DNA of 19,614 bases from assembly GCA_016839585.1 (NCBI GenBank), contig JAEOTZ010000051.1:1-19614 (forward strand). The letters run 5' to 3'. The stretch comes from Promethearchaeota archaeon (GTDB taxonomy: Archaea; Asgardarchaeota; Lokiarchaeia; Sigyniarchaeales; SOKP01). Below, piece by piece: positions 859-19,614 of the stretch. Below the pieces are notes generated by a model. The model made no database searches. It was not told where the DNA came from and saw only the letters and a list, made by a program, of their open reading frames with translations. Each line of letters starts with the position of its first letter. Position 1 is the first letter of the stretch. The position numbers were made by a program, and so were the translations under genes.

Positions 859-1641
859 CTAAAATATGAATTTTCCATAGGTCTTTAGAAAAGTAATGAA
901 TTTATATAAATTTGGGATTTCGAACAAGAGAATTGCGATTAAGTTTGAAATTAAAAATATCAAAACATCTTTTTTAAGTATTAAATAATTAGTCAAGGTG
1001 GACCCTTCTTGAAATTTGAATAAGAATATCCCTTGATTTAAAAATAAAAATATTCCTATGCAAATGATAAAGCCAGAAATGTTAAAAATTATAACTTGAT
1101 GTTCTTGTTCAAAAATTCCAATTGTTACATTAATGCCTAGGATTATTAAGGTAATGATTACAATAGTTCTAGAGAACATCATCATATAATCATATATACT
1201 TGCGCTTACTTTACAAATATTACCTGAAATATGCCAAAATAGGGAAGAATATAAATTTAATATTAAAAAAATAGGTAGAATAACCGAGATCATAGAAAAA
1301 GTGAAAAATAATTTTATGGTTATTAATCTACTAAAAAGTAGTTTACCTTTCTCTTCTCCTTTTCTTACAGATTCCAACATTGTATTAATTTTAATATGGA
1401 TTTCTTCTGGAATTTCCTTTTTAAGCACTTTTAATTGAAAAGTTGAATCGGGATAATTTGAGATCAAATTTTCAACCGAATTATAACCATTCTTGAATTT
1501 TCGTTTAGAACCCTTTGGACCCTTCCATATATAGATAATCTTGTTTTCATCATCTAAAAATGCGCAAATATCGTGTAATAATAAATTTGTTTCTTCAATC
1601 CATGCATATTTATCTTCATAAAACACATAGCTTCTAAGCAT
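859..1641 (-). CDS. Membrane protein with an N-terminal gelsolin-like domain and about 4 C-terminal transmembrane helices
   Basis: N-terminal LLLHDICAFLDDENKIIYIWKGPKGSKRKF matches the gelsolin repeat core (D-x-h-h-h-D...IYIWxG..S). Four hydrophobic segments at about aa 109-136, 154-177, 183-208 and 226-246. The ORF itself is well supported; the gelsolin call is by motif only. Confidence 0.62.
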   Translation of the reverse strand: MLRSYVFYEDKYAWIEETNLLLHDICAFLDDENKIIYIWKGPKGSKRKFKNGYNSVENLISNYPDSTFQLKVLKKEIPEEIHIKINTMLESVRKGEEKGKLLFSRLITIKLFFTFSMISVILPIFLILNLYSSLFWHISGNICKVSASIYDYMMMFSRTIVIITLIILGINVTIGIFEQEHQVIIFNISGFIICIGIFLFLNQGIFLFKFQEGSTLTNYLILKKDVLIFLISNLIAILLFEIPNLYKFITFLKTYGKFIF

Positions 1642-1748: not shown

Positions 1749-2651
1749 TTATTCTTGGCTTTCAATTCTTTTCTTTATTTCTTGCCACATATCATTGATG
1801 TAAGTTTTATAAATTTCAATTTCTTGGGCACTTAGAGTTTTAAATCTTTTCTGTACACTTAGATATTCCTCTATAGGTTTTCTTTTAGAAGGATCTAGAT
1901 ACTTACTGCTTGGTTTTGATAAAATAAATTTACCGTTAATCACTTCATATAAAGGCCAGAATCCAGTCTGCACGGCAAGTCTACCTATCAGTATTGTATC
2001 CTTAGGTTCATATCCCCAACCAGGTGGGCAGGGTGAAAGGATATGGAAATATTTCGTTCCAAATATATCTCTTGCCTTTTTAAATTTTTCAAATAAATCA
2101 AGTGGATAAGATGAAATACCCGTAGTCACATAAGGAATACCATGAGCTTCTAAAATCTTTGGCATATTTTTCTTATGCCCTAATTTACCTTCAGGTGTAG
2201 TTGTAGTTCTTACTCCTAATGGTGTAGAACCACTTCGTTGAACACCTGTATTCATATAAGCTTCATTATCATAACATGCAAAGATAAAATTTGTACCTCT
2301 TTCAGCAGCACCACTTAATGCCTGTATTCCTATATCAGTTGTCCCACCATCTCCTGCGAATGCAAGTACACATATTTCTTCATCCAATCCCTTATCTTCT
2401 AGTGAAGCTCTTATTCCAGAGGCAGAGGCACCTGTTGTTGCAAAGGGTGTGTGATAAACGGATATTTTTGTTGAACAAAACCCTTGCATCCCATGTAGCA
2501 CTGTTAGGCAAGAGGCGGGTACTGTTACTATAGTTTTTGAACCTAGTGCTTTTAGAGCAATTCTGTAAATTAGAGCCATCCCACATCCAGCACAAGCACG
2601 TGTGCCAGGATAAATATATTCTTCTTCAGGAAGATCCATAACATTTACCAT
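1749..2651 (-). CDS. porB: Pyruvate/2-oxoacid:ferredoxin oxidoreductase beta subunit (TPP-binding)
   Basis: ACAGCG motif, TPP-binding motif GDGGTTDIG...YDNEAYMNTG, SPCPPGWG. Directly downstream of the alpha subunit. Substrate (pyruvate vs 2-ketoisovalerate) cannot be resolved. Confidence 0.92.
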   Translation of the reverse strand: MVNVMDLPEEEYIYPGTRACAGCGMALIYRIALKALGSKTIVTVPASCLTVLHGMQGFCSTKISVYHTPFATTGASASGIRASLEDKGLDEEICVLAFAGDGGTTDIGIQALSGAAERGTNFIFACYDNEAYMNTGVQRSGSTPLGVRTTTTPEGKLGHKKNMPKILEAHGIPYVTTGISSYPLDLFEKFKKARDIFGTKYFHILSPCPPGWGYEPKDTILIGRLAVQTGFWPLYEVINGKFILSKPSSKYLDPSKRKPIEEYLSVQKRFKTLSAQEIEIYKTYINDMWQEIKKRIESQE

Positions 2652-2657
2652 TTTTTC

Positions 2658-3950
2658 TCATCCTCCTTTGAAATAAGTTGATTCATCATAATCTTTTAAT
2701 TCTTCTAAATTTAACCCTAAAAAGTCTGTTTTATTGGTAAATATTCCTTTTTTAAATGCATCTAAAGCTTTATGAACCCCAGATATGATATGTTCTGTTT
2801 TAACGTCTCTTCCACCCAATCCAACAATAAATCCTTTAATATTTGGTCGATTTTTTAATCCATAAAGTGCAGCTTTTAGTTCATAAGATAAAACACCTTC
2901 ATAACCATAACCTATATCTCTGTCAAATACAATGATATTTTCTTTATCTTTAAAGAATTCTCTCAAATCTTCGGCAGGATAGGGTCTAAATAACTTTAAA
3001 CTCACTAATCCAACTTTAAGTCCTTCAGTTCTAAGTTTTTTAATTGCAATCCTTGCTTGAGATGCCACCGAACCCATCGTAAAGATTATGGTATTAGCAT
3101 CATTAGTATCAACTGTTTTATAAATTCCATTTCCATAAGATCTCCCAAATTTCTTGAAAAATTCATCATGAACTTCTTTAATTATATTAATTGAATTTTC
3201 TAATGCTTTTTGTAATGCATATCGATATTCATAATATCCTGGCGCCGTTCCTTCCGCTCGTTTGATAATATTAGGAGTTGTAACGGGATCAATCCCCTTT
3301 ACATTTGATATATCAGATAAATTGATATGATGTTTAAGAGGCGGTAAGAACCCATCAATCTCTTCTTGATTCTCTAATTTAACAGGCATCATTGTATGAC
3401 TAAGTATATATCCATCATACGCAACTATAGCGGGTAGAAAAATACGAGGATCCTCAGCAATTTTAAAAGCTTGGAGATTGGTGTCATAGATTTCTTGATT
3501 ATTTTCGCATATAAATTGTATCCATCCAACATCTCTTATCGTTATAAAATCTTGATGATCAGTCCAAACACTCCAAGGGGCGCCTAAGGATCTAGTTGCT
3601 AGATTAATAATTATAGGTAATCTATTTCCTGAAGCCCAAGGTAGCATTTCATACATATATTCTAACCCATGAGCAGACGTTGCTGTGCCAACTCTAGAGC
3701 CTGTAGCAGAAGCAGCACAACATACTGCAAGTGCGGAATGCTCAGACTCGACTTTTACAAACCTAGCTTTCAATTTTCCTTCTGAAATAAATTCAGCGAT
3801 TTTTTCAACTACAGGACTTTGAGGTGTTATTGGATATGCTGAGATAACGCCGACTTTTGCTTGCCTAAAAGCATGCGCAGCGGCATGATTACCTGTTAAA
3901 ATCATTATATTTTCATTAGTAACTTTTTCTTTCTCATTAGATACAGTCAC
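2658..3950 (-). CDS. porA: Pyruvate/2-oxoacid:ferredoxin oxidoreductase alpha subunit
   Basis: TGNHAAA, AYPITPQS, VESEHSA, TATSAHGL, DGYILSHT, LFRPYP and GLGGRD motifs. Start overlaps the delta-subunit stop (ATGA). Confidence 0.92.
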   Translation of the reverse strand: MTVSNEKEKVTNENIMILTGNHAAAHAFRQAKVGVISAYPITPQSPVVEKIAEFISEGKLKARFVKVESEHSALAVCCAASATGSRVGTATSAHGLEYMYEMLPWASGNRLPIIINLATRSLGAPWSVWTDHQDFITIRDVGWIQFICENNQEIYDTNLQAFKIAEDPRIFLPAIVAYDGYILSHTMMPVKLENQEEIDGFLPPLKHHINLSDISNVKGIDPVTTPNIIKRAEGTAPGYYEYRYALQKALENSINIIKEVHDEFFKKFGRSYGNGIYKTVDTNDANTIIFTMGSVASQARIAIKKLRTEGLKVGLVSLKLFRPYPAEDLREFFKDKENIIVFDRDIGYGYEGVLSYELKAALYGLKNRPNIKGFIVGLGGRDVKTEHIISGVHKALDAFKKGIFTNKTDFLGLNLEELKDYDESTYFKGG

Positions 3951-4246: not shown

Positions 4247-4534
4247 AAAAACACCAAATTTAGATTAAATTTAAAGCCTTGTATAAAATCAAACGCACAT
4301 AAATTTTTAATTCTTACCATTTAGAATAAAATGAATAAGGCTAAATTTTAATTAAAATATTAGTTTTTCGGTTAACATACGATTAATTTTCTTATGGGAA
4401 AAATAAAGACATAAATATTACTTATTTTATTATTCACTTTAGATAACGTATTAGGCTCCTAAAATAGTAGTATAATTTTTTAAATTTTTAACAAATGTAG
4501 TAACATTTAAAAATAACAGAAGTTGAGGTTAACG

Positions 4535-6841
4535 TTGGACACTTCACCCGATACGCTTAAATTAATTACTGAAATGGAAAAATATAAGAGTATAATTGAT
4601 AACATAAAAGAATGCTATTTCGAAGTTGATCTAAAAGGTAATTTTACATTTTTCAATGACTCTGTATTGAAACTTTTGGGTTATTCACGAGATGAACTTT
4701 TAGGATTAAATTATAAGTATCTTGCAGATGAAGAAACTAGAAGTAAAGTCTTTAAAGGATTTAATATGGTTTATGAAACTGGTAAGCCACTATCAGATTT
4801 TCAATACCAATTTAGAAACAAAAAAGGAGAGAAAATAGTTGGTGAAACATCTGTATATTTAAAATATGATGCGAAAGGAAATAAAATTGGTTTCTGTGGC
4901 TTATTTCGCGATATAACTAAAAGAAAGGAAGAAGAGCAAAGATTTAAAGAAGAATTAGAAAATAAAGTACGTTTAAGGACTAAAGAATTAAGAGAATCCG
5001 AAGAAAAGTATAGTAATCTTTTCCACCATTCTAATGATGCGATTTTTTTACATGATTTGGAAGGAAATATTATAGATGTTAATCAAAGAGTATTGGAACA
5101 ATTCGGATATACTAGATCAGAGATTCTAAAACTTAAAATTCCAGACCTTCATCCAATAGAAGAACTTGAATCATCTAAGAAAGCATTCGAAGAAGTTTCA
5201 AATAAAGGAGTTATAAGATTTGAAATAAGTTTTAAAAAGAAAAACGGGGAGATTTTTTTAGCTGAAGTGTCATCTAGTTTATTTAATATAAGTGGTAATC
5301 AAGTTATTCAAGGAATTGTAAGAGATATAAGCGAACGTAGATTAGCTGAGCAGAAATTAAAGGATTCTGAAAAGAAACACCGAAACATGATTAATAACCT
5401 TGATTTAGGATTTTATCAGTTAAGTTGGGACGGAATATTATTAAATCATAATCCTGCTTTTAGCAAAATATTAGGGTTCGATCCATCTGAAAATTTAATC
5501 AATAAGAACATCCATGATTTTTGGCAAAAACCTGAAGAACGGATAACATATTTAGATGAATTAAAAAAGTTAGGCTATGTTAAGAATTATTTAGTTCATG
5601 CAAAAAAGAAAAACGGTGAAAAAATTGTTTTACACCTTAATTCTCATATTTTAGAAAAAAGGAAGGGGAACCCAAATATAATTCAAGGATTAATAACAGA
5701 TATCACTGAAAAATTCAAATTAGAACAAAAATTAAAAGAATCTGAGGAAAGATTTCGAAATCTTTTTGAATCTATGCCTTTTTCTATAGCACTTCTTGAT
5801 CAAAAAGGAAGGGTGGTTTATTGTAATCCTGCTACTGAAAAATTACTTGGATATAGTATGGAAGATTTAATTGGTGAAGAATTTAGAAATCTTTCAATCA
5901 TTCATCCTCAATATTTACCTCTAATTATGAAAAGATTTAAAAAGGTAATAAAAGGTGAAAATTTATCGCCAATAGATATTCAGATATATAAGAAAAATGG
6001 TAATTTAACTTGGATAAACTATCAGACCTCCTTAGTAAATCTAGGTAATGAATCATTGTTGCAAGCAATTATAAATGATATTTCAGAAAAAAAAAAAGCT
6101 GAACTTCTTATCATAGAAGAAGTGAAAAAGTTGAAAGAATTAGATCAAATCAGGAAAGATCTTATTTCTAGAGTCTCACATGAGTTAAAAACACCACTCG
6201 TTTCTGTATGTGGAGGATCTGAACTTCTTTTGCAACTATATAAACCTAATTTGGATGCAGATGTTTTAGAGTTATTAGAACTCATAGAAAAGGGTGGAAA
6301 AAGGTTAAAGTATTTAGTTGATAATTTACTTGATATTACTCGAATAGAATATAATAAACTCAAACTAAATAAAGAATTAAGCGATTTAAGCAAAATTATT
6401 AAAGATTGCGCGAAAGAATTACTCTATTTAGCTAGAGTTAGAGAATTAGATTTGGATTTAAAATTAGCAGATAACTTATATTTAGAGATAGATAAAATTA
6501 GATTAGAACAAGTAATTATTAATTTATTATCGAATGCTATAAAGAATACCCAACCTAAAGGAAAAATTGAAATTCTTTTACAGAAAAAAGAAGATTGGGC
6601 TGAAATTTCAGTAATTGATACAGGGATTGGATTAACGAAAGGAGAAATGGATATCCTATTCACAAGATTTGGCAAAATTGAAAGATATGGAGAAGGGTTA
6701 GAATATATAGATATTCAAGGTTCTGGATTAGGGTTATATATCTCTAAAGAAATTGTTGATTTACATGGGGGTCAAATAAGAGCTGAATCAGCAGGAAGGA
6801 ATAAGGGAAGTACATTTATTGTGAAATTACCAATTAATTGA
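4535..6841 (+). CDS. Cytoplasmic multi-PAS (4 PAS/PAC) sensor histidine kinase
   Basis: Four PAS repeats ending in RDIT/RDIS/TDIT/NDIS; H-box SHELKTPL, N-box NLLSNAIK, DTGIG, GSGLGL; no TM segment. Start is uncertain: TTG 4523 (track) or TTG 4535, which follows a GAGGT Shine-Dalgarno-like sequence at 4525-4529. Confidence 0.93.
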   Translation: MDTSPDTLKLITEMEKYKSIIDNIKECYFEVDLKGNFTFFNDSVLKLLGYSRDELLGLNYKYLADEETRSKVFKGFNMVYETGKPLSDFQYQFRNKKGEKIVGETSVYLKYDAKGNKIGFCGLFRDITKRKEEEQRFKEELENKVRLRTKELRESEEKYSNLFHHSNDAIFLHDLEGNIIDVNQRVLEQFGYTRSEILKLKIPDLHPIEELESSKKAFEEVSNKGVIRFEISFKKKNGEIFLAEVSSSLFNISGNQVIQGIVRDISERRLAEQKLKDSEKKHRNMINNLDLGFYQLSWDGILLNHNPAFSKILGFDPSENLINKNIHDFWQKPEERITYLDELKKLGYVKNYLVHAKKKNGEKIVLHLNSHILEKRKGNPNIIQGLITDITEKFKLEQKLKESEERFRNLFESMPFSIALLDQKGRVVYCNPATEKLLGYSMEDLIGEEFRNLSIIHPQYLPLIMKRFKKVIKGENLSPIDIQIYKKNGNLTWINYQTSLVNLGNESLLQAIINDISEKKKAELLIIEEVKKLKELDQIRKDLISRVSHELKTPLVSVCGGSELLLQLYKPNLDADVLELLELIEKGGKRLKYLVDNLLDITRIEYNKLKLNKELSDLSKIIKDCAKELLYLARVRELDLDLKLADNLYLEIDKIRLEQVIINLLSNAIKNTQPKGKIEILLQKKEDWAEISVIDTGIGLTKGEMDILFTRFGKIERYGEGLEYIDIQGSGLGLYISKEIVDLHGGQIRAESAGRNKGSTFIVKLPIN
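6131..6177 (+). repeat. 47-bp exact direct repeat, copy 1 (H-box region of kinase 1)
   Basis: TTGAAAGAATTAGATCAAATCAGGAAAGATCTTATTTCTAGAGTCTC is identical to 8427-8473, then one mismatch and 20 further identical bases. Confidence 0.9.
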
Positions 6842-6893
6842 TTTATAATAAATAATTAAAAATTTTTTTATTTAAGTACAATTTATAAAAAAA

Positions 6894-9134
6894 ATGAAGT
6901 ATAATAAGGAAGAAATAAGAAAAAAGTATAAGGATCTATTTGAAAATTCTTTAGATTTAATTTATGTTAATGATCTAAAAGGTAATATTCTTGATGCTAA
7001 TGATATTGCTTTAAAATCTCTTGGATATAAAAAGGAAGAAATATCAAACATTTCTTTCATAAATTTAGTTGATCAAGAGAATTTGCTTAAAGCAATAAAG
7101 GTTACCAAAGAAATAGTGGAAAAAGGAAGGCAAACAGAACGTAGTGAATATAAACTAAAAAAAAAGGACGGGAATTTTATTTATATTGAGACATATGCAA
7201 TTCCTTTAAAAAAGAATGATAAAATTTATGCGATTTTAGGAATTGGAACTAATATTACTGAACGTAAAATTGCTGAGCAAAAACTAAAAGAATCCAAAGA
7301 AAAGTATCGACACCTATTTGAAAATTCTCCTGATTTTGTAGGGTTAGTAGATTTAAAAGGAAATTTGATAGATTGTAATAATCGAGTTGAACATTTTCTT
7401 TCAATCCATAAGAAAGAAGATATTATTGGAAAAAATTTTAGAGATATTTTCTCAATTAATGAAAAAAACAAGTATGTTATACCTCTATTTGAAGAATTTT
7501 ATAAAAATATACTTAAAGGTGAAATTCCAGAGCCTATTGAATTTAAATTATATAGAACAATAGGGAGATTTTTATGGCTAAATCTCCGAGGTTCTTTAAT
7601 AGATATTGAAGGAAAAAAATTAATTCAATTTATAATTCAAAATATTACAGAGAAAAAAGAAGCAGTCCAAAAATTAAAAGAATCTGAAGAAAAGTACAAG
7701 AACTTAGTAGAAAATGGTCAAGAAGGGGTCTGGGCAGTGGATGAAAATGATGATACAATCTTTGTAAATCCAAAAATATGTGAAATGCTTGGATATAATA
7801 AAGATGAAATGATGGGTAAAAATTTAGATTTATTTTTAGAGGACTCAATGATGGAATTGATCAATAGTTATCGAAAACGTAGAGAAAAAGGTTTGAAAGA
7901 TACTTATGAACTTGAATTCTTAAAAAAGGATGGAACTATAATACATACAAGTGTAAAAGCTGCTCCAATCTTAAAAGAAAATGGACGGTTTAAAGGTTCA
8001 TTTGCATATATTAATGATATTACAAATAAAAAAATAGCGGAAAAAAAATTAAAAGAATCTGAAAAAAAATTCAGATCAATTTTTGAAGCTATACCAGATC
8101 TCTATTTTCTCGTTGATAATAATACAACAATCTTAGATTATAGAGGGAAAGAGGAAGATTTATATTTACCTCCAGAACTATTTCTTCGAAAAAAATTAAC
8201 AGATCTTATACCCATAGAAATAAAAGATTTATCAGTAAATGCTGTAAAGAACACTATAAAAACACAAAAACCACAATTGATGGAATATGCGCTTCTTATA
8301 AAAAATGAAACTCGACATTTTGAAGCTCGCTTTCTTTTTTTCTCTGAAGAACGTGTTGCTATATTTATACGGGAAATTACTGATCGGAAAAAAGCTGATC
8401 TTATCATCAAAGAAGAAATTAATAAATTGAAAGAATTAGATCAAATCAGGAAAGATCTTATTTCTAGAGTCTCCCATGAGTTAAAAACACCACTTGTTTC
8501 TGTTATCGGCGGATCCGAACTTCTTCTTAATAATTTTAAAGAAAAAATAAAGGGTGAAGAATTAGAGCTATTAGAGATTATTCAAAAAGGAGGGAAAAGA
8601 TTAAAACACCTTATTGAAAATCTACTTGATACTACTCGAATAGAATATAATAAATTTAAATTAGAAAAGGAGGAAGAGGATCTAAGTGAAATTATTAATG
8701 AGATATCAAATGAAATGATGTATTTAATAAAGGAACGAAAGCTTATATTAAACTTAGAACAACCTGAGAGCTTGCGTTTATATATAGATAGAATTAGAAT
8801 TGAACAAGTTATTACAAACTTATTGTTAAATGCTATAAAAAATACACCACCTATGGGACATATAACGATAAAGTTACAGAAAAAGGAAGATTGGGCAGAA
8901 ATTTCTGTTAGTGATACTGGAGTTGGATTAACTAAGGAAGAAATGAACATTATTTTTACTAGATTTGGAAAGATAGAAAGATATGGACAAGGGTTAGAAT
9001 ATATAGATATTCAAGGTTCTGGACTTGGATTATTTATATCTAAAGAAATTGTGGATTTACATAGTGGTTATATTAGAGCAGAATCAGAAGGTAGAAATAA
9101 AGGAAGCACATTTATAGTACAACTGCCAATTTAA
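6894..9134 (+). CDS. Cytoplasmic multi-PAS (4 PAS/PAC) sensor histidine kinase, paralog of the upstream kinase
   Basis: Four PAS repeats ending in TNIT/QNIT/NDIT/REIT; SHELKTPL, NLLLNAIK, DTGVG, GSGLGL. Kinase core very similar to the upstream gene. Confidence 0.93.
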   Translation: MKYNKEEIRKKYKDLFENSLDLIYVNDLKGNILDANDIALKSLGYKKEEISNISFINLVDQENLLKAIKVTKEIVEKGRQTERSEYKLKKKDGNFIYIETYAIPLKKNDKIYAILGIGTNITERKIAEQKLKESKEKYRHLFENSPDFVGLVDLKGNLIDCNNRVEHFLSIHKKEDIIGKNFRDIFSINEKNKYVIPLFEEFYKNILKGEIPEPIEFKLYRTIGRFLWLNLRGSLIDIEGKKLIQFIIQNITEKKEAVQKLKESEEKYKNLVENGQEGVWAVDENDDTIFVNPKICEMLGYNKDEMMGKNLDLFLEDSMMELINSYRKRREKGLKDTYELEFLKKDGTIIHTSVKAAPILKENGRFKGSFAYINDITNKKIAEKKLKESEKKFRSIFEAIPDLYFLVDNNTTILDYRGKEEDLYLPPELFLRKKLTDLIPIEIKDLSVNAVKNTIKTQKPQLMEYALLIKNETRHFEARFLFFSEERVAIFIREITDRKKADLIIKEEINKLKELDQIRKDLISRVSHELKTPLVSVIGGSELLLNNFKEKIKGEELELLEIIQKGGKRLKHLIENLLDTTRIEYNKFKLEKEEEDLSEIINEISNEMMYLIKERKLILNLEQPESLRLYIDRIRIEQVITNLLLNAIKNTPPMGHITIKLQKKEDWAEISVSDTGVGLTKEEMNIIFTRFGKIERYGQGLEYIDIQGSGLGLFISKEIVDLHSGYIRAESEGRNKGSTFIVQLPI
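8427..8473 (+). repeat. 47-bp exact direct repeat, copy 2 (H-box region of kinase 2)
   Basis: Identical to 6131-6177. Confidence 0.9.
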
Positions 9135-9160: not shown

Positions 9161-9745
9161 TTATAAAATCTTAGCAAGGTTAAATCCTTGTTCAATCAAT
9201 TCAATATTTTGGTGTGCTAAATACTCCCCCATTCTTTTTGAAATTACCTTTTTAAAGTTTTCTAAACTTAATTCTGGAAGAGCTTTTGATAGTAAACCCA
9301 AGATTGGAGTATTAATTACAGGAACTCCATCAATGGTAAGATTTTTTTCCAGAGCTAATTTACTTATATCAGCTAAAACTAATTTAACATTTTTAAGGGT
9401 AAATTTACTAATGAAATAATCGGGATCCTTTTCGGAGTTTATTATAAAAATTCCCCCTTTTTTAAGAGATGAAGCAATTTCTTGATTTAGAACTGTCTCA
9501 TCAAAAATAATTAAAACATTTGGGTGTTCGATCTGCGCGCGATCCCATATTGTTTCGGTTCTAGAGAGTTTAGCATATGCCTGAACAGGCGCTCCTCTTC
9601 TTTCTGCCCCAAAGGAAGGATAGGCATGAACATCAACAAAATTACCACTCATATATGCTGCTTCTGCAATTATTTCGCAGGCAGTAACAGCACCTTGACC
9701 TCCTCTCCCATGGATAATAATATCTACATTCTCTTTTTCAATCAT
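9161..9745 (-). CDS. porG: Pyruvate/2-oxoacid:ferredoxin oxidoreductase gamma subunit
   Basis: IIIHGRGGQGAVT, YPSFGAERRGAPV and NTPILG motifs. Start placed at ATG 9745 (MIEKENVDIIIHGRGG) rather than 9811, because the GRGGQG motif is normally near the N-terminus. Confidence 0.91.
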   Translation of the reverse strand: MIEKENVDIIIHGRGGQGAVTACEIIAEAAYMSGNFVDVHAYPSFGAERRGAPVQAYAKLSRTETIWDRAQIEHPNVLIIFDETVLNQEIASSLKKGGIFIINSEKDPDYFISKFTLKNVKLVLADISKLALEKNLTIDGVPVINTPILGLLSKALPELSLENFKKVISKRMGEYLAHQNIELIEQGFNLAKIL

Positions 9746-9967
9746 AGAAAAACCTAAAAATTGATTACTAGAATAACAGAATTGATATTTTTTAATATAA
9801 ATTATATGCAAAAATTAAAAACTTTACCTTGTTCTAAATAATATGAACTAAATTTTTTTTCCCCTATTTATTCTTCGAAATTTTTGACTAAATATTAATA
9901 ATGATAAAAAATCAAATGATATTATAATTAATTTGCATAAAAAACAAAACTTCACATTGTGATAAAC

Positions 9968-10991: not shown

Positions 10992-13883
10992 ATGCCTCAA
11001 AAAAAACCTTTTGAAGAGATCAAATTTAAGGATCTTACTCCAATGATGAAACATTGGTATTCTGTTAAAAAGAAATATCCTAAATACATCCTCGCGTACC
11101 GAATGGGGGATTTTTTCGAGTTCTTCTATGATGATGCTGAAAAAATCTCAAAACTCTTAGGTATAACACTTACCAAACGAAAAATAGGCAATGATGCCTA
11201 TCCTTTAGCTGGAATTCCACATCACTCCGGTCATAATTATTTTAATAATCTCATGAATCTTGGTGAAACTTTGGTAATAGTCGATCAATTAGAAGACCCT
11301 GCAACTGTGAAAGGTAGGATTGTCAAGCGAGGTGTAACTCGAATATTATCTCCAGGCACGATTATTGAACCAAATATGTTGAAATATAATGAAAATAACT
11401 ATATTGCTTCGATGGTAAAGGAGAGAAAAGGTTTTGGTGTCGCGTTTGCCGATATATCTACCGGTGAATTTGTAGCAACTGAATTTTCAATAAAAGACCA
11501 AGATCCTCAAGAAAAAATACTGAGTCTGTTTTCTCAGTATGATCCTGTAGAATTAATAATTCCTCCTGAAATAAAAAAAGATGAGAGGTTATTTATTTTA
11601 TTAACTGATTTAACAGAAGCCATAATTAAATCATATGAGGAACATGTATTTTACTATGATGAAGCATACGCTTTACTTACTCGACATTTTAATATTTCTA
11701 ATTTAAAAAGCTTTGGATTAGAGAATAATCAAATGGCTATTCAAGCAGCTGGAGGTTTAATAGCCTTTTTGAAAGATACTCAACGAGATATAATTCCTAA
11801 TATCTTTAAAATCAACATACTTCAGGAAAAGAATATTCTACACTTAGATTATGTTACACAAAGAAATTTAGAGTTAATTAATTCTTTATGGGAAAAAGGA
11901 AAGGATGCTACATTATATTCTATTTTTAACCTTACCCATACACCTATGGGAGCACGTTTGTTAAAAAAATTTATTCTACAACCATTAACTAACATTGAAG
12001 AAATAAATCAAAGACTAAATATTGTTCAAAAATTCAAAGATGATGTCTTTTTAAGATCTGATTTAAGGGAAGAATTAAAGGTTGTAGGCGATCTTGAGAG
12101 ATTTATTAACAGAATTAATTATATTGGCCGTACAAATGCCAGAGATTTAATAAATATCAAAAATTCTTTAGGTAAAATCCCTAGGATTAAACAACTATTA
12201 GAAAAAGCAAATATTCCCGAAATTTCTGAGTTTGTCGAAAATATTAATACATTTGATAAAATTAAACTCCTAATTGAAGTAGCAATTAAAGATAATCCAC
12301 CAACAACAGTTAAAGAAGGTAATATTATTAAGGATAATTACAATGATGAAGTTGATGAGCTTAGAGATATTATACATAATGGAAAGGAATATATGTTGCA
12401 ATATGAACAAAAGCAGAAAAAAAGGTGGAATTTAACTACAGGATTAAAAGTTGGGCATAACAATATCCTTGGATATTATATCGAAATTACCTTACGAACT
12501 CTTAAAATCATCAGAAATGTGCCAGAGGAGTATGTAGAAAGAGCAACTCTTAAAAATGCTAAAAGATATACAACTGAAAAATTAAAAGAACTCGAAGAAA
12601 AAATAGTTAATGCGGAAGAAAAAATTAATGATTTAGAATATGAAATTTTTAATACTATTCGTGAAAGTGTCGAAAAAGAGACTAAAAAAATTCTTGGAAC
12701 TGCAAAAAATATTGCTATGGTTGATGTTCTCGCATGTTTTGCGGAAATCGCAGAACAATACAATTATTGCAGGCCAATTATTAATAATAACAATAAAATC
12801 ATAATCAAAGAAGGTAGACATCCTGTAGTTGAACAGATAAACTTAGATGAGCAATTTATTCCAAATGATTGCTATTTAGATAATAAAAAAGCCCAAATAT
12901 TAATTATAACTGGTCCTAATATGGCAGGAAAAAGCACTTATCTACGGCAAGTGGCTTTAATATGCATTATTGCTCAAATGGGATGTTTTGTTCCAGCAAA
13001 ATCCGCTACACTCGGAATAATTGATCACATTTTCACTCGAATCGGTGCCTCAGATGACCTTGCTAGAAAATTGAGTACTTTTATGATAGAAATGACAGAA
13101 ACTGCTAAAATTCTTAATTATGCTACACTAAATAGTCTTGTTATAATAGATGAGTTAGGAAGAGGCACCAGTACCAGTGATGGCCAAAGCATAGCAATGG
13201 CAACTTTAGAAAAACTTCATGAAGTACAAGTTAAAACTCTTTTTAGTACACATTATCATCAATTAACAGAAATTAGATTACCGCGAGTAAATAATTATCA
13301 CTTAGACATTATCGAAAATGACGATGGAAGTATTAATTTTGTTAGAAAATTAAGTCTTGGAAGCACAGATAAATCTTATGGTATTCATGTTGCTAAGTTA
13401 GCAGGAATTCCGGATGATGTAATTATAAGAGCGTTTGAGATTTTAGAACAAATAGAAGAGAAAGATCCTTTTAAAAAAACTGTTCAAGAAAATGGGAATA
13501 ATTTTGGACCTATAAAACACCATGATAAGATAATCGGCGAAAAAAGAAAAATATTAGAAAAATTAAACAAGGAATTAGAGAATAAAAAGGATGAATTAAC
13601 TAAACGTGAAGCAGCGTTAAGCGAAAAAGAAAAATTAATCAAGAGTAAGAGTTTTGAAATAGAGAAGTTGAAAACAAATCAAGAGAAATACATAGATAAA
13701 AAACAAGGTACTACGAAAAAACTTGTTCAGACTACTTTCTTTAAACCAACAGTATTAAAAGAAGAAGTTATAGATGAGAATTTAAAAGAGGTAATTTATT
13801 TATTAAGAGAACTTGATATATATTCTCTTACTCCTATTGAGGCGCTTAAAAAATTAAGTGATCTTAAAGATAAGCTAATGTAA
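10992..13883 (+). CDS. mutS: DNA mismatch repair protein MutS (MutS1 type)
   Basis: TPMM...RMGDFFEFF (Phe-x-Glu mismatch motif), AGIP, Walker A TGPNMAGKSTYLRQ, STFMIEM, Walker B DELGRGT, STHY, SYGIHVAKLAG, and C-terminal LTPIEAL. Confidence 0.96.
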   Translation: MPQKKPFEEIKFKDLTPMMKHWYSVKKKYPKYILAYRMGDFFEFFYDDAEKISKLLGITLTKRKIGNDAYPLAGIPHHSGHNYFNNLMNLGETLVIVDQLEDPATVKGRIVKRGVTRILSPGTIIEPNMLKYNENNYIASMVKERKGFGVAFADISTGEFVATEFSIKDQDPQEKILSLFSQYDPVELIIPPEIKKDERLFILLTDLTEAIIKSYEEHVFYYDEAYALLTRHFNISNLKSFGLENNQMAIQAAGGLIAFLKDTQRDIIPNIFKINILQEKNILHLDYVTQRNLELINSLWEKGKDATLYSIFNLTHTPMGARLLKKFILQPLTNIEEINQRLNIVQKFKDDVFLRSDLREELKVVGDLERFINRINYIGRTNARDLINIKNSLGKIPRIKQLLEKANIPEISEFVENINTFDKIKLLIEVAIKDNPPTTVKEGNIIKDNYNDEVDELRDIIHNGKEYMLQYEQKQKKRWNLTTGLKVGHNNILGYYIEITLRTLKIIRNVPEEYVERATLKNAKRYTTEKLKELEEKIVNAEEKINDLEYEIFNTIRESVEKETKKILGTAKNIAMVDVLACFAEIAEQYNYCRPIINNNNKIIIKEGRHPVVEQINLDEQFIPNDCYLDNKKAQILIITGPNMAGKSTYLRQVALICIIAQMGCFVPAKSATLGIIDHIFTRIGASDDLARKLSTFMIEMTETAKILNYATLNSLVIIDELGRGTSTSDGQSIAMATLEKLHEVQVKTLFSTHYHQLTEIRLPRVNNYHLDIIENDDGSINFVRKLSLGSTDKSYGIHVAKLAGIPDDVIIRAFEILEQIEEKDPFKKTVQENGNNFGPIKHHDKIIGEKRKILEKLNKELENKKDELTKREAALSEKEKLIKSKSFEIEKLKTNQEKYIDKKQGTTKKLVQTTFFKPTVLKEEVIDENLKEVIYLLRELDIYSLTPIEALKKLSDLKDKLM

Positions 13884-15112: not shown

Positions 15113-17002
15113 TTGAATAGAGACAACGAAAAAATCAATAAAATTAAGGATTATGAAAAAATAGCTGCTGGAGAGGTTATTGAAAGACCTGCGAATGTTG
15201 TGAAAGAGTTAATAGAAAATAGTATAGATGCTGGAGCTAAAGAAATAAGAATTATCATTAAAAAAGCAGGAAAAACATTAATCCAAGTTATAGATGATGG
15301 TAAAGGTATTCCTCCAGATGATATGGAACTCGCCTTTGAAAGATATACCAGTAGTAAAATTAATAGTTTTGATGATTTGGAAAAGCTTTCAACTTTAGGA
15401 TTTAGAGGAGAAGCATTAGCTAGTATATCAGCAGTAAGTCAGATTGAAATTATTTCAAGAATTAAAAAGAACGAGAGAGGATTACAATTATTTATAGAAG
15501 GGGGGAAAGTTTTAAGAAAGAAAGAAATGTCATGTCCCATTGGAACAAATATTAAAGTTAAGAATTTATTCTATAATATTCCAGCTAGGAAAAAATTCCT
15601 TAAAAAAGATTACACAGAGTTAGGACATATCACAGATATTATACAAAGATATTCATTAGCGTATCCTGATTTTCAATTCATTTATCAACATAATGAGTTA
15701 ACCATTTTAAATTGCCCTGCATCTAATGATTTAAAAACGACTGTTTTCCATATTTATGGGAAAAATATTGCTAAATTTATGGAATATATTGATTATTCTG
15801 AAAAAGGAGAACTATTTAAAATATATGGATTAGTAGGTCAACCTCAAATTTCTAAAAAAGATAGAACAAAATCTAGTTTTTTTCTTAATCGTAGATATGT
15901 TATAAGTGATATTATATTTCGAGCAATTAAAGAAGCATATAAAGGAACATTGATGATAAATAAGCATCCATTTTTCATATTATTCTTAGAGTTAAATCCA
16001 TCATCCATAGATTTTAATATTCATCCGAAAAAGCTTTATATTAAGTTTGAAAGAGAAGATTATGTGTATAATAGGGTTTATACCATTATCCGAGATTTTG
16101 TAGAAGAAAAATTTATGAAACAGGAGCCGAAGTATTTAGATATTGAACTTGAAGATTTCATTCCGAAAGAAGAATTAGTCGAGGAATTAAGTTCCAAAAC
16201 TCAACAATCAGAAACAGAAAATCTTGAAACTGAAAAAGCTATATTAAAAACTGATGCAATAGTAGAGACTGAAGAAAATATTATTGATGAGTCTGTCCAA
16301 TTACATCTTTCTGAAGATATCATTAATCATAAACCCTTTAAAAAACAAATACCAGAAACCTTTTTACGAGAAAAATTTATAAAAAAGGAAGATTTTCCTA
16401 AAGTTCGCCTAATCTCTTCAACTGGCCAATTAAGTAATAAGATATATATTGTATTAGAAGGTTTTAATGAAACTAATGAACCGGGATTATATATTCTAGA
16501 TCAGCATGCTGCTTCTGAAAGAATAAATAAAGAAAAGCTACTAGAATCATATAAATCTTCAAAAACTAGCAAACAAAAACTTATCTCTCCATTAAAAATT
16601 GATGTTTCTCATAGTGAAAAATTCTTTTTGAGTGACCATTTAGGTGAAATTAAAAAACTTGGATTTGATTTTGAGCATTTTGGTGGAAATACTTTCATTT
16701 TGCGAGAACTACCTACAATTATAGGAAAAGTTCCAGATATAAATGTAATAAAAGATATAATTGCAGATATAACAAAAATAGGTAAAGATAAAAGTTTTTC
16801 AGAGGTAAAAGAAGAGATCATTAATTATTTGGCTTGTCATAAAAGTATTCGAGGAGGAGATGATCTTTCTTTAGAAAATATTAGGGATCTCATAATTGAA
16901 TTAGCTGATTGTAAGGATTCCTACCATTGTGCACATGGAAGACCTACATTGAGATTTCTCTCATTTAAAGAATTAGATAAGTTGTTTAAAAGAAAAGTTT
17001 AA
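15113..17002 (+). CDS. mutL: DNA mismatch repair endonuclease MutL
   Basis: KIAAGEVIERPANVVKELIENSIDAGA, DDGKGI, TLGFRGEALASI, LFYNIPARKKFL, DFNIHPKK; endonuclease motifs DQHAASERINKE, ACH, CAHGRP and FKR. TTG start. Confidence 0.96.
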   Translation: MNRDNEKINKIKDYEKIAAGEVIERPANVVKELIENSIDAGAKEIRIIIKKAGKTLIQVIDDGKGIPPDDMELAFERYTSSKINSFDDLEKLSTLGFRGEALASISAVSQIEIISRIKKNERGLQLFIEGGKVLRKKEMSCPIGTNIKVKNLFYNIPARKKFLKKDYTELGHITDIIQRYSLAYPDFQFIYQHNELTILNCPASNDLKTTVFHIYGKNIAKFMEYIDYSEKGELFKIYGLVGQPQISKKDRTKSSFFLNRRYVISDIIFRAIKEAYKGTLMINKHPFFILFLELNPSSIDFNIHPKKLYIKFEREDYVYNRVYTIIRDFVEEKFMKQEPKYLDIELEDFIPKEELVEELSSKTQQSETENLETEKAILKTDAIVETEENIIDESVQLHLSEDIINHKPFKKQIPETFLREKFIKKEDFPKVRLISSTGQLSNKIYIVLEGFNETNEPGLYILDQHAASERINKEKLLESYKSSKTSKQKLISPLKIDVSHSEKFFLSDHLGEIKKLGFDFEHFGGNTFILRELPTIIGKVPDINVIKDIIADITKIGKDKSFSEVKEEIINYLACHKSIRGGDDLSLENIRDLIIELADCKDSYHCAHGRPTLRFLSFKELDKLFKRKV

Positions 17003-19269: not shown

Positions 19270-19614
19270 TTAAACCTTTCCTACATTTTCCATCATTTTG
19301 CGTGTAATAAGTTCAAATACTTCATCAACATTATCACCAGTTTTGGATGAACATTCAATATATCCATCTAAGTTACGAGATTTTGATAACTCAATAGCAT
19401 CTTCAGCAGGCACAGAACGTTTTTCATTTAAATCTAATTTTCCCCCCACCATAATAAGTGGTATCTGAAGTTGTGTTTTTGATGAGCCCTGCTTAAAAAA
19501 AGAGAGCCAATCATCTATATTTTTCATACTGGTATATCTTGTTATGTCAAACATAAAAATACCTCCATCTGCTCCCTTAGCAAAGCTAGGTAAAAGAACT
19601 CTAAAGCGATCTTC
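19270..19614 (-). CDS. Rab/Ras-like small GTPase; 5' part lies outside the window
   Basis: Frame open to the window edge: EDRFRVLLPSFAKGADGGIFMFDITRYTSMKNIDDWL...IPLIMVGGKLDL...YIECSSKTGDNVDEVF. Shows the switch II region, G4 (GKLD) and G5 (SSK). Confidence 0.92.
   Translation of the reverse strand, partial: EDRFRVLLPSFAKGADGGIFMFDITRYTSMKNIDDWLSFFKQGSSKTQLQIPLIMVGGKLDLNEKRSVPAEDAIELSKSRNLDGYIECSSKTGDNVDEVFELITRKMMENVGKV

Follow-up and report, generated by a model that had tools for sequence, protein, structure and literature searches.

The window analyzed here, a stretch of 19,614 nucleotides from a Promethearchaeota archaeon (contig JAEOTZ010000051.1), is AT-rich, with a GC content of about 26–35%. 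Its minus strand carries, at positions 859 to 1641, an ATG-to-stop open reading frame of 260 codons plus stop, and the 260-aa product, a membrane-embedded gelsolin-fold protein, is referred to here as TM-Gel. The gene lies between two others on the same strand, with the PFOR beta gene on its upstream side and the gene for a RIO2 kinase 136 bp downstream. The 107 bp that separate the start codon of TM-Gel from the PFOR beta gene are AT-rich and probably contain a promoter for TM-Gel itself. The features of the locus and of the encoded protein are collected in Table 1.

Table 1. Features of the TM-Gel locus, in positions of the window, with the residues of the protein to which they correspond.
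Feature	Positions	Strand	Basis or remark
TM-Gel, whole ORF	859..1641	(-)	homologs, dN/dS
AT-rich spacer of 107 bp, from PFOR beta gene to TM-Gel start codon	1642..1748	(-)	sequence only
Gelsolin fold core, residues 1-78	1408..1641	(-)	AF2 models, fold matches, conservation
Long helix, residues 46-62	1456..1506	(-)	least conserved part of the head
Second gelsolin-fold helix, lengthened to a charged stalk that enters TM1, residues 79-102	1336..1407	(-)	
Membrane helix 1, in to out, residues 106-135	1237..1326	(-)	preceded by conserved R105
Outer loop 1, residues 136-146	1204..1236	(-)	modeled as a short beta hairpin; W136 81% conserved
Membrane helix 2, out to in, residues 147-178	1108..1203	(-)	ends at the acidic cytoplasmic turn E178-Q182
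Membrane helix 3, residues 181-209	1015..1101	(-)	most conserved membrane segment: G196, Y200, G204, L207, F208
Outer loop 3, residues 210-222	976..1014	(-)	F210, G213, Y219, I221; conserved like helix 3
Membrane helix 4 and basic cytoplasmic C-terminal end, residues 223-259	865..975	(-)	D225, P243

Eight genera of the family to which the window belongs share the order PFOR delta-alpha-beta, TM-Gel, RIO2. In the family of Lokiarchaeum and Promethearchaeum the gene has other neighbors, namely TFB, an Eco57I-type methylase, a hydrolase and RtcB. The neighborhood was considered as a clue to function and was rejected, since the neighbors differ between families and what is kept is an inherited order, not a functional operon. 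The rest of the window holds several genes of separate interest. Two tandem multi-PAS histidine kinases of 772 and 746 aa (4523-6841 and 6894-9134, both on the plus strand) adjoin the PFOR genes, and the gene for the PFOR gamma subunit is set apart from the others (9161-9811, minus strand). Further along there are a bacterial-type MutS with all five MutS domains (10992-13883, plus strand) and a MutL (15113-17002, plus strand), with the gene for a GT87-like glycosyltransferase between them on the opposite strand, and a gene for a Ras-family small GTPase is cut by the end of the window (19270-19614, minus strand).

In sequence of such composition it is reasonable to ask whether an open reading frame is a gene. 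A word-indexed search returned 93 full-length homologs of TM-Gel, nearly all of 259–262 aa and all annotated as “hypothetical” or left unnamed; those with a named source stem from Asgard metagenome bins. When 1.84 billion representative proteins were scanned exhaustively with HMMER, 68 relatives emerged. More distant members of the family (20–30% identity, 280–320 aa) are built alike, with an additional basic tail at the C-terminus. The dN/dS ratio, calculated from 15 close pairs, is 0.17 overall, and in the same pairs it is 0.065 for the strands of the head and reaches 0.21 in the long helix and 0.22 in the membrane domain, so TM-Gel is under purifying selection. Furthermore, the ortholog of strain MK-D1, DSAG12_00505, is transcribed with an RPKM of 157, which can be compared with values of 177 and 388 for its neighbors and 390 for a recognized gelsolin gene of the same organism (PMC7015854, Supplementary Table 3). 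The notion that TM-Gel is a chance reading frame or a mis-annotated pseudogene has one point in its favor, the AT-rich sequence (GC about 26%), and is refuted by the 93 homologs of the same length, the purifying selection, the confident structure models and the transcription of the ortholog; the probability left to it is negligible. TM-Gel is a real gene.

The scan of 1.84 billion representative proteins contained no longer protein with only part of the TM-Gel architecture, and none with the membrane module alone; the short matches resemble fragments at contig ends. One exception to this absence of fused or split forms was seen, in an Asgard genome of another family (G058, contig C98, 1826-2962, minus strand). 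It is a 378-aa reading frame that opens with the second half of the TM-Gel head and runs from the Y-I-W-x-G-P-K motif across the stalk helix into the beginning of membrane helix 1, continuing in frame into an EamA/DMT-type transporter. The transporter part resembles the adjoining gene, and the first half of the head is absent from the upstream frame. This reading frame is probably the remnant of a rearrangement or an assembly chimera.

The earlier note on this DNA had placed a gelsolin domain in the first ~85 residues, on the strength of a motif (LHDICAFLDDENKIIYIWKGPKGS) that corresponds to residues 22–45 of TM-Gel. The domain is indeed there, and the fold extends over ~100 residues. AlphaFold2 (AF2) models have a pLDDT of 87.4 for the whole protein and 85.7 for the head alone. 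In them the core strands occupy residues 2–8, 13–16, 25–30, 35–40 and 69–72, and their order along the chain is four strands, the long helix (46–62), the fifth strand and a second helix (79–100). The result is the five-stranded mixed sheet between a long and a shorter helix that defines the gelsolin superfamily. The charged linker that the earlier note had seen after the head takes the form of a stalk helix, continuous with the second helix of the fold.

The assignment is reinforced by both sequence and structure comparisons. A family profile built from 30 members and run with hmmsearch against PDB sequences matches villin (1e-06), gelsolin (1.4e-05) and ProGel of Thorarchaeota (2.8e-04), as well as CapG and adseverin, and the matches always span strand C, strand D and the segment of the long helix. 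When the family is aligned by hhalign with the canonical two-domain gelsolin of the same order, the probability is 92.9% and the E-value 3.6e-07. At the level of structure, a Foldseek comparison, of the kind that the earlier note had suggested, gave 50 best matches among solved structures that are all gelsolin-family domains, led by ProGel 7c2f (E 2.9e-04, TM 0.68), and the best 21 VIA-align matches are domains of gelsolin, villin, severin, fragmin and Asgard gelsolins, except for one row that corresponds to Sec23a. The latter search, an independent all-against-all comparison with the head alone, is again headed by ProGel 7c2f (Z 10.0, rmsd 2.6, 84/88 residues), which is followed by adseverin, the 2DGel proteins of Loki, Thor and Heimdall, gelsolin and villin (Z 8–9) and, at lower ranks, by Sec23a (Z 7.4) and then by ADF/cofilins (Z 5–6). 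Residues 1 to ~100 of TM-Gel thus have the gelsolin fold, with a similarity that goes well beyond chance.

The hallmark residues of the head are W14, E16, H23, D24, D30, Y37, W39 and G41. Four of them belong to the pattern LD...(Y/F)xWxG, which is kept at D30 in 54 of 59 members, at Y37 in 51, at W39 in 56 and at G41 in all 59; a “DWG” motif has been described as a hallmark of gelsolin domains (PMC7444086). A Pfam search of the TM-Gel protein does not match PF00626, whose gathering score is not reached, and its sole match is PF25466, with 15 bits, below the cut-off of 27. Just 4 of the 59 members match PF00626 at E<=0.01. The “hypothetical protein” labels follow from this, and it is because the domain goes undetected by Pfam that TM-Gel was missed by the catalogs of ESPs; the MK-D1 ortholog, for instance, bears no ESP label in Supplementary Table 3 of Imachi et al., 2020 (PMC7015854).

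Among the ligands of the type II calcium site of gelsolins are the Asp of a “GD” pair before strand C and a Glu nine residues after the conserved Trp. This residue pattern is only half preserved in TM-Gel: the Asp, D24, is invariant and is preceded by H23 in 53 of 59 members, and the Glu position (residue 48) is occupied by Lys or Arg in 38 of 59 and by Glu in 3 of 59. In the 2DGel proteins of the same genomes, the D and the E of the type II site are both kept at 96%. Since the type II Glu is replaced by Lys or Arg, calcium control of TM-Gel appears unlikely, as in ProGel and 1DGelX. The earlier note had also hinted at calcium independence, based on the apparent replacement of an acidic “EGxE” segment. 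The conclusion stands by virtue of the lost type II Glu, and the landmark does not: it is the wrong motif, and its P78 is conserved in 93% of the family.

The second half of the protein contains four hydrophobic stretches with Kyte-Doolittle means (19-residue windows) of 2.0–2.3, centered near residues 120, 165, 190–200 and 235. The AF2 model turns them into the four helices listed in Table 1 and packs these as a bundle, in which a strand of loop 3 pairs with the hairpin of loop 1. According to the hydropathy profile, the N-terminus is not hydrophobic and there is no signal peptide. The mean number of Lys and Arg residues across the alignment is 4.0 before helix 1 and 3.3 in the C-terminal tail, compared with 0.3 in loop 1 and 1.0 in loop 3. 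From this positive-inside distribution and the absence of a signal peptide we infer a cytoplasmic head and C-terminus, with loops 1 and 3 on the outer side. The earlier note's reading of four membrane helices, no signal peptide and a cytoplasmic head is therefore borne out, in its last point by the charge distribution. Within the membrane domain, conservation is highest at the outward end, in helix 3 and loop 3, with D225 included.

No known membrane family could be named for the bundle: the fold searches with the whole model list generic soluble or designed four-helix bundles, with Z up to 17, a kind of match that is common for helical bundles in structural searches. The ESM Atlas, queried by features and by shape, returned the cluster of the TM-Gel family itself and nothing else. 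The membrane module is thus without recognizable relatives. Its predicted four-helix, N-in/C-in layout would fit that of the tetraspan types (claudin/PMP22, MARVEL, tetraspanin), and small strands are modeled in both outer loops of TM-Gel.

The distribution of the family is narrow. A survey of 400 genomes of the phylum gave full-length matches exclusively in a single Asgard order, where the gene is present in 113 of 134 genomes of the family of the window, in 13 of 14 of a second family and in 3 of 4 of a third; the search of Asgard genomes for the same architecture, which the earlier note had recommended, therefore locates it in three families. The second family includes Lokiarchaeum ossiferum, “Harpocratesius repetitus” and Promethearchaeum syntrophicum MK-D1. 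In the cultured species, the orthologs are UYP46179.1 (NEF87_002464) of L. ossiferum and QEE14692.1 (DSAG12_00505) of P. syntrophicum. By gene order, the former should be GNAMCCOK_02484, given that RtcB (54.8 kDa) is 02486. The remaining Asgard families give weak matches alone, confined to the gelsolin segment. Within the family of the window, genus g6 (four genomes, G158–G161, 89–100% complete) has TM-Gel in none of its members, and three of these genomes (G159–G161) keep Lokiactin, 2DGel and a single-domain gelsolin of 197 aa. This absence looks like a lineage-specific loss, and because the gene is lacking in all four genomes of the genus, it is not indispensable.

Three architectures of Asgard gelsolins have been described, all of them soluble: ProGel, 1DGelX and 2DGel (PMC7444086, PMC9433394). 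The five gelsolin-homology proteins reported for L. ossiferum are soluble as well (bioRxiv 10.1101/2025.11.30.690169). Solubility is a trait of the Asgard single-domain gelsolins that TM-Gel, with its four hydrophobic helices, does not have. A literature search for membrane-anchored Asgard or archaeal gelsolins, and for the accessions and locus tags of the orthologs, found no membrane-embedded form in the searchable papers; these describe soluble forms alone, in agreement with what the earlier note had said of the characterized proteins.

ProGel, the best structural match of the head in spite of an identity of just ~20%, consists of one domain of the gelsolin/cofilin type, ~90 aa long, which shows the D...W.G pattern and has no calcium sites (7c2f chain B/D; Akil et al., 2020, PMC7444086). 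It is free and soluble, whereas TM-Gel adds to the domain a stalk, drawn out of its last helix, and four membrane helices; in the alignment, the invariant His-Asp of TM-Gel stands opposite a Glu-Lys in ProGel. The 1DGelX or GelX type resembles TM-Gel in joining a single calcium-independent gelsolin head to a body of another kind, but this body is a soluble charged coiled coil, called “X”, instead of a membrane bundle (PMC7444086; B35_GelX, bioRxiv 10.1101/2025.11.30.690169). Purified 1DGelX severs actin (PMC7444086), an activity that TM-Gel is not known to have. The 2DGel proteins and the eukaryotic gelsolins and villins (PF00626) have the fold and a homologous core in common with TM-Gel (profile E 1e-06 to 1e-03); unlike it, they consist of two to six repeats, keep the calcium ligands (GD...E), have a highly conserved long helix and are soluble. 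Sec23 and Sec24 of the COPII coat also place a gelsolin fold at a membrane, and Sec23a is not known to bind actin. Their match to TM-Gel is weaker (Z 7.4 and 5.5) and does not extend to the sequence, and the domain is one of five in a large soluble coat protein.

It is proposed that the head of TM-Gel derives from the single-domain class of Asgard gelsolins (ProGel / GelX type). TM-Gel has the traits of this class, namely one gelsolin domain, no calcium ligands and a Lys-rich start of the long helix (K43, K46, K48 and K50), and hhalign aligns its head with the 197-aa single-domain gelsolin of the same genome (E 2.4e-06) and with a 422-aa GelX-type protein of genome G279 (E 8.8e-06). The latter (contig C1, 8861-10126, plus strand) has a gelsolin-like head and a long Glu/Lys-rich coiled coil, with no membrane segment, and its gene lies 1.3 kb from that of TM-Gel (6808-7566, minus strand) in divergent orientation. 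This arrangement hints that the two heads are paralogs.

Whether such a head would bind actin is the central question. Besides a Lokiactin (443 bits to PF00022), the genome encodes three more members of the actin family and several soluble proteins with gelsolin domains. Every Asgard gelsolin-domain protein characterized so far binds actin: 1DGelX of Thor does so in the absence of calcium, with a Kd of 7.7 uM, and ProGel, likewise without calcium, binds weakly, yet it was crystallized on actin (PMC7444086). In L. ossiferum, five gelsolin-homology proteins co-precipitate with Lokiactin. The TM-Gel homolog is not among them, and the authors point out that the assay under-represents membrane proteins (bioRxiv 10.1101/2025.11.30.690169).

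ProGel, gelsolin G1 and cofilin all reach into the actin cleft with the long helix (PMC7444086). In the 24 genomes that have both proteins, the pairwise identity of this helix is 0.71 in domain 1 of 2DGel vs. 0.28 in TM-Gel, and that of the whole domain is 0.64 vs. 0.40, while actin itself is 88–99% identical across the order. A loss of the grip on actin could be read into these values. The reading holds against 2DGel and fails when the soluble 197-aa single-domain gelsolin is taken as control: in 15 genomes, the identity of the strands is 0.58 for the control and 0.61 for TM-Gel, and that of the long helix is 0.45 and 0.42, respectively. Because the soluble protein is equally variable, the variable helix characterizes the class instead of marking a loss peculiar to TM-Gel, so that as evidence it is weak. 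Both proteins begin the helix with a conserved run of lysines. The residue of TM-Gel that we take to occupy the position of Ile103 of gelsolin G1, from the structure of G1 with actin, is polar and variable.

Taken together, these observations suggest that TM-Gel is an integral membrane protein with a single calcium-independent gelsolin-fold head in the cytoplasm, held by a short helical stalk above an antiparallel four-helix membrane bundle, and that it could work as a membrane-fixed docking site for the Lokiactin cytoskeleton. The head would bind monomers or filaments of actin weakly, driven by charge, and its concentration in the two dimensions of the membrane would make weak binding effective. 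By analogy with the related proteins, we give this candidate role of a membrane-fixed, calcium-independent docking site an even chance. It is the most likely interpretation, favored by the homology to gelsolin, the actin-binding relatives, the N-in/C-in topology (which places head and actin on the same side of the membrane), the retention of the gene, the purifying selection and the transcription. What argues against it is the poor conservation of the long helix relative to domain 1 of 2DGel next to a well-conserved actin, together with the existence of gelsolin-like domains without actin binding (Sec23/24), the polar residue at the Ile103 position, the homolog not being named in the Lokiactin co-precipitation, and genus g6, which retains actin and soluble gelsolins and lacks TM-Gel. 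In addition, the stalk is short and the modeled head lies near the lipid surface, so its basic helix could face lipids. A more far-reaching version, in which TM-Gel attaches Lokiactin filaments directly and its outer face couples contacts on the outside (surface layer, substrate, partner cells) to the cytoskeleton, is tentative and somewhat doubtful.

A different possibility, which we consider unlikely, is that the gelsolin fold was re-used to dock a cytoplasmic partner that is not actin, as in Sec23/24, and that TM-Gel is a membrane receptor or adaptor whose conserved outer face, made up of helix 3, loop 3 and the loop 1 hairpin, would detect or bind something on the outside. The membrane segment with the highest conservation, helix 3 with loop 3, faces outward, a feature that would be superfluous in a mere anchor; conservation of the long helix is low in comparison with the canonical gelsolin domain 1 of the same genomes; Sec23/24 provide a precedent for a fold that loses actin binding; and in the same genome pairs TM-Gel evolves faster (34–52% identity) than the genes that flank it (3-722 and 1749-3950, 70–86%) or actin (96–99%). 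However, the homology detected in the sequence is to gelsolin proper and to the Asgard single-domain gelsolins, not to Sec23/24, the soluble single-domain control takes most of the weight off the argument from the helix, and the gene neighborhood yields no candidate partner. It could also be that the four-helix domain is the working part, as an oligomeric channel or a membrane-shaping unit, and that the head regulates it or uses its basic helix to bind anionic lipid head groups. Conserved polar and glycine residues do lie within the helices (N129, E178, Q182, G196, Q203, G204 and D225), head and membrane domain are conserved to a similar degree, and the start of the long helix and the stalk, both rich in Lys and Arg, are near the membrane; eukaryotic gelsolins, moreover, bind phosphoinositides. 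Nonetheless, the bundle matches no membrane protein family and purifying selection is strongest on the strands of the head, by the ratios given above, which makes this explanation quite improbable.

Cultured Lokiarchaeia crawl and form actin-filled protrusions (bioRxiv 10.1101/2025.11.30.690169), and no protein that joins Lokiactin to the membrane is named in the searchable papers. With a gelsolin-type head permanently fused to a membrane bundle, and present across the order and in both cultured species, TM-Gel is an obvious candidate for this link. If it binds actin, the coupling of membrane and cytoskeleton would predate eukaryotes, by means of a design that eukaryotes dropped. If the attachment is direct, TM-Gel would be the first integral-membrane actin-binding protein outside eukaryotes, with a connection to protrusions and crawling. 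If it does not bind actin, it would represent an Asgard case of a gelsolin fold re-used at the membrane, like Sec23/24.

A last observation concerns the soluble gelsolins of the same genome. The canonical two-domain gelsolin of the order (in this genome on contig C5, 712-1725, minus strand) ends in a conserved four-cysteine module that resembles a zinc ribbon (CPxCG ... CGxCG), and the same module, of ~60 aa, is found in these genomes in many small stand-alone reading frames and in other proteins.
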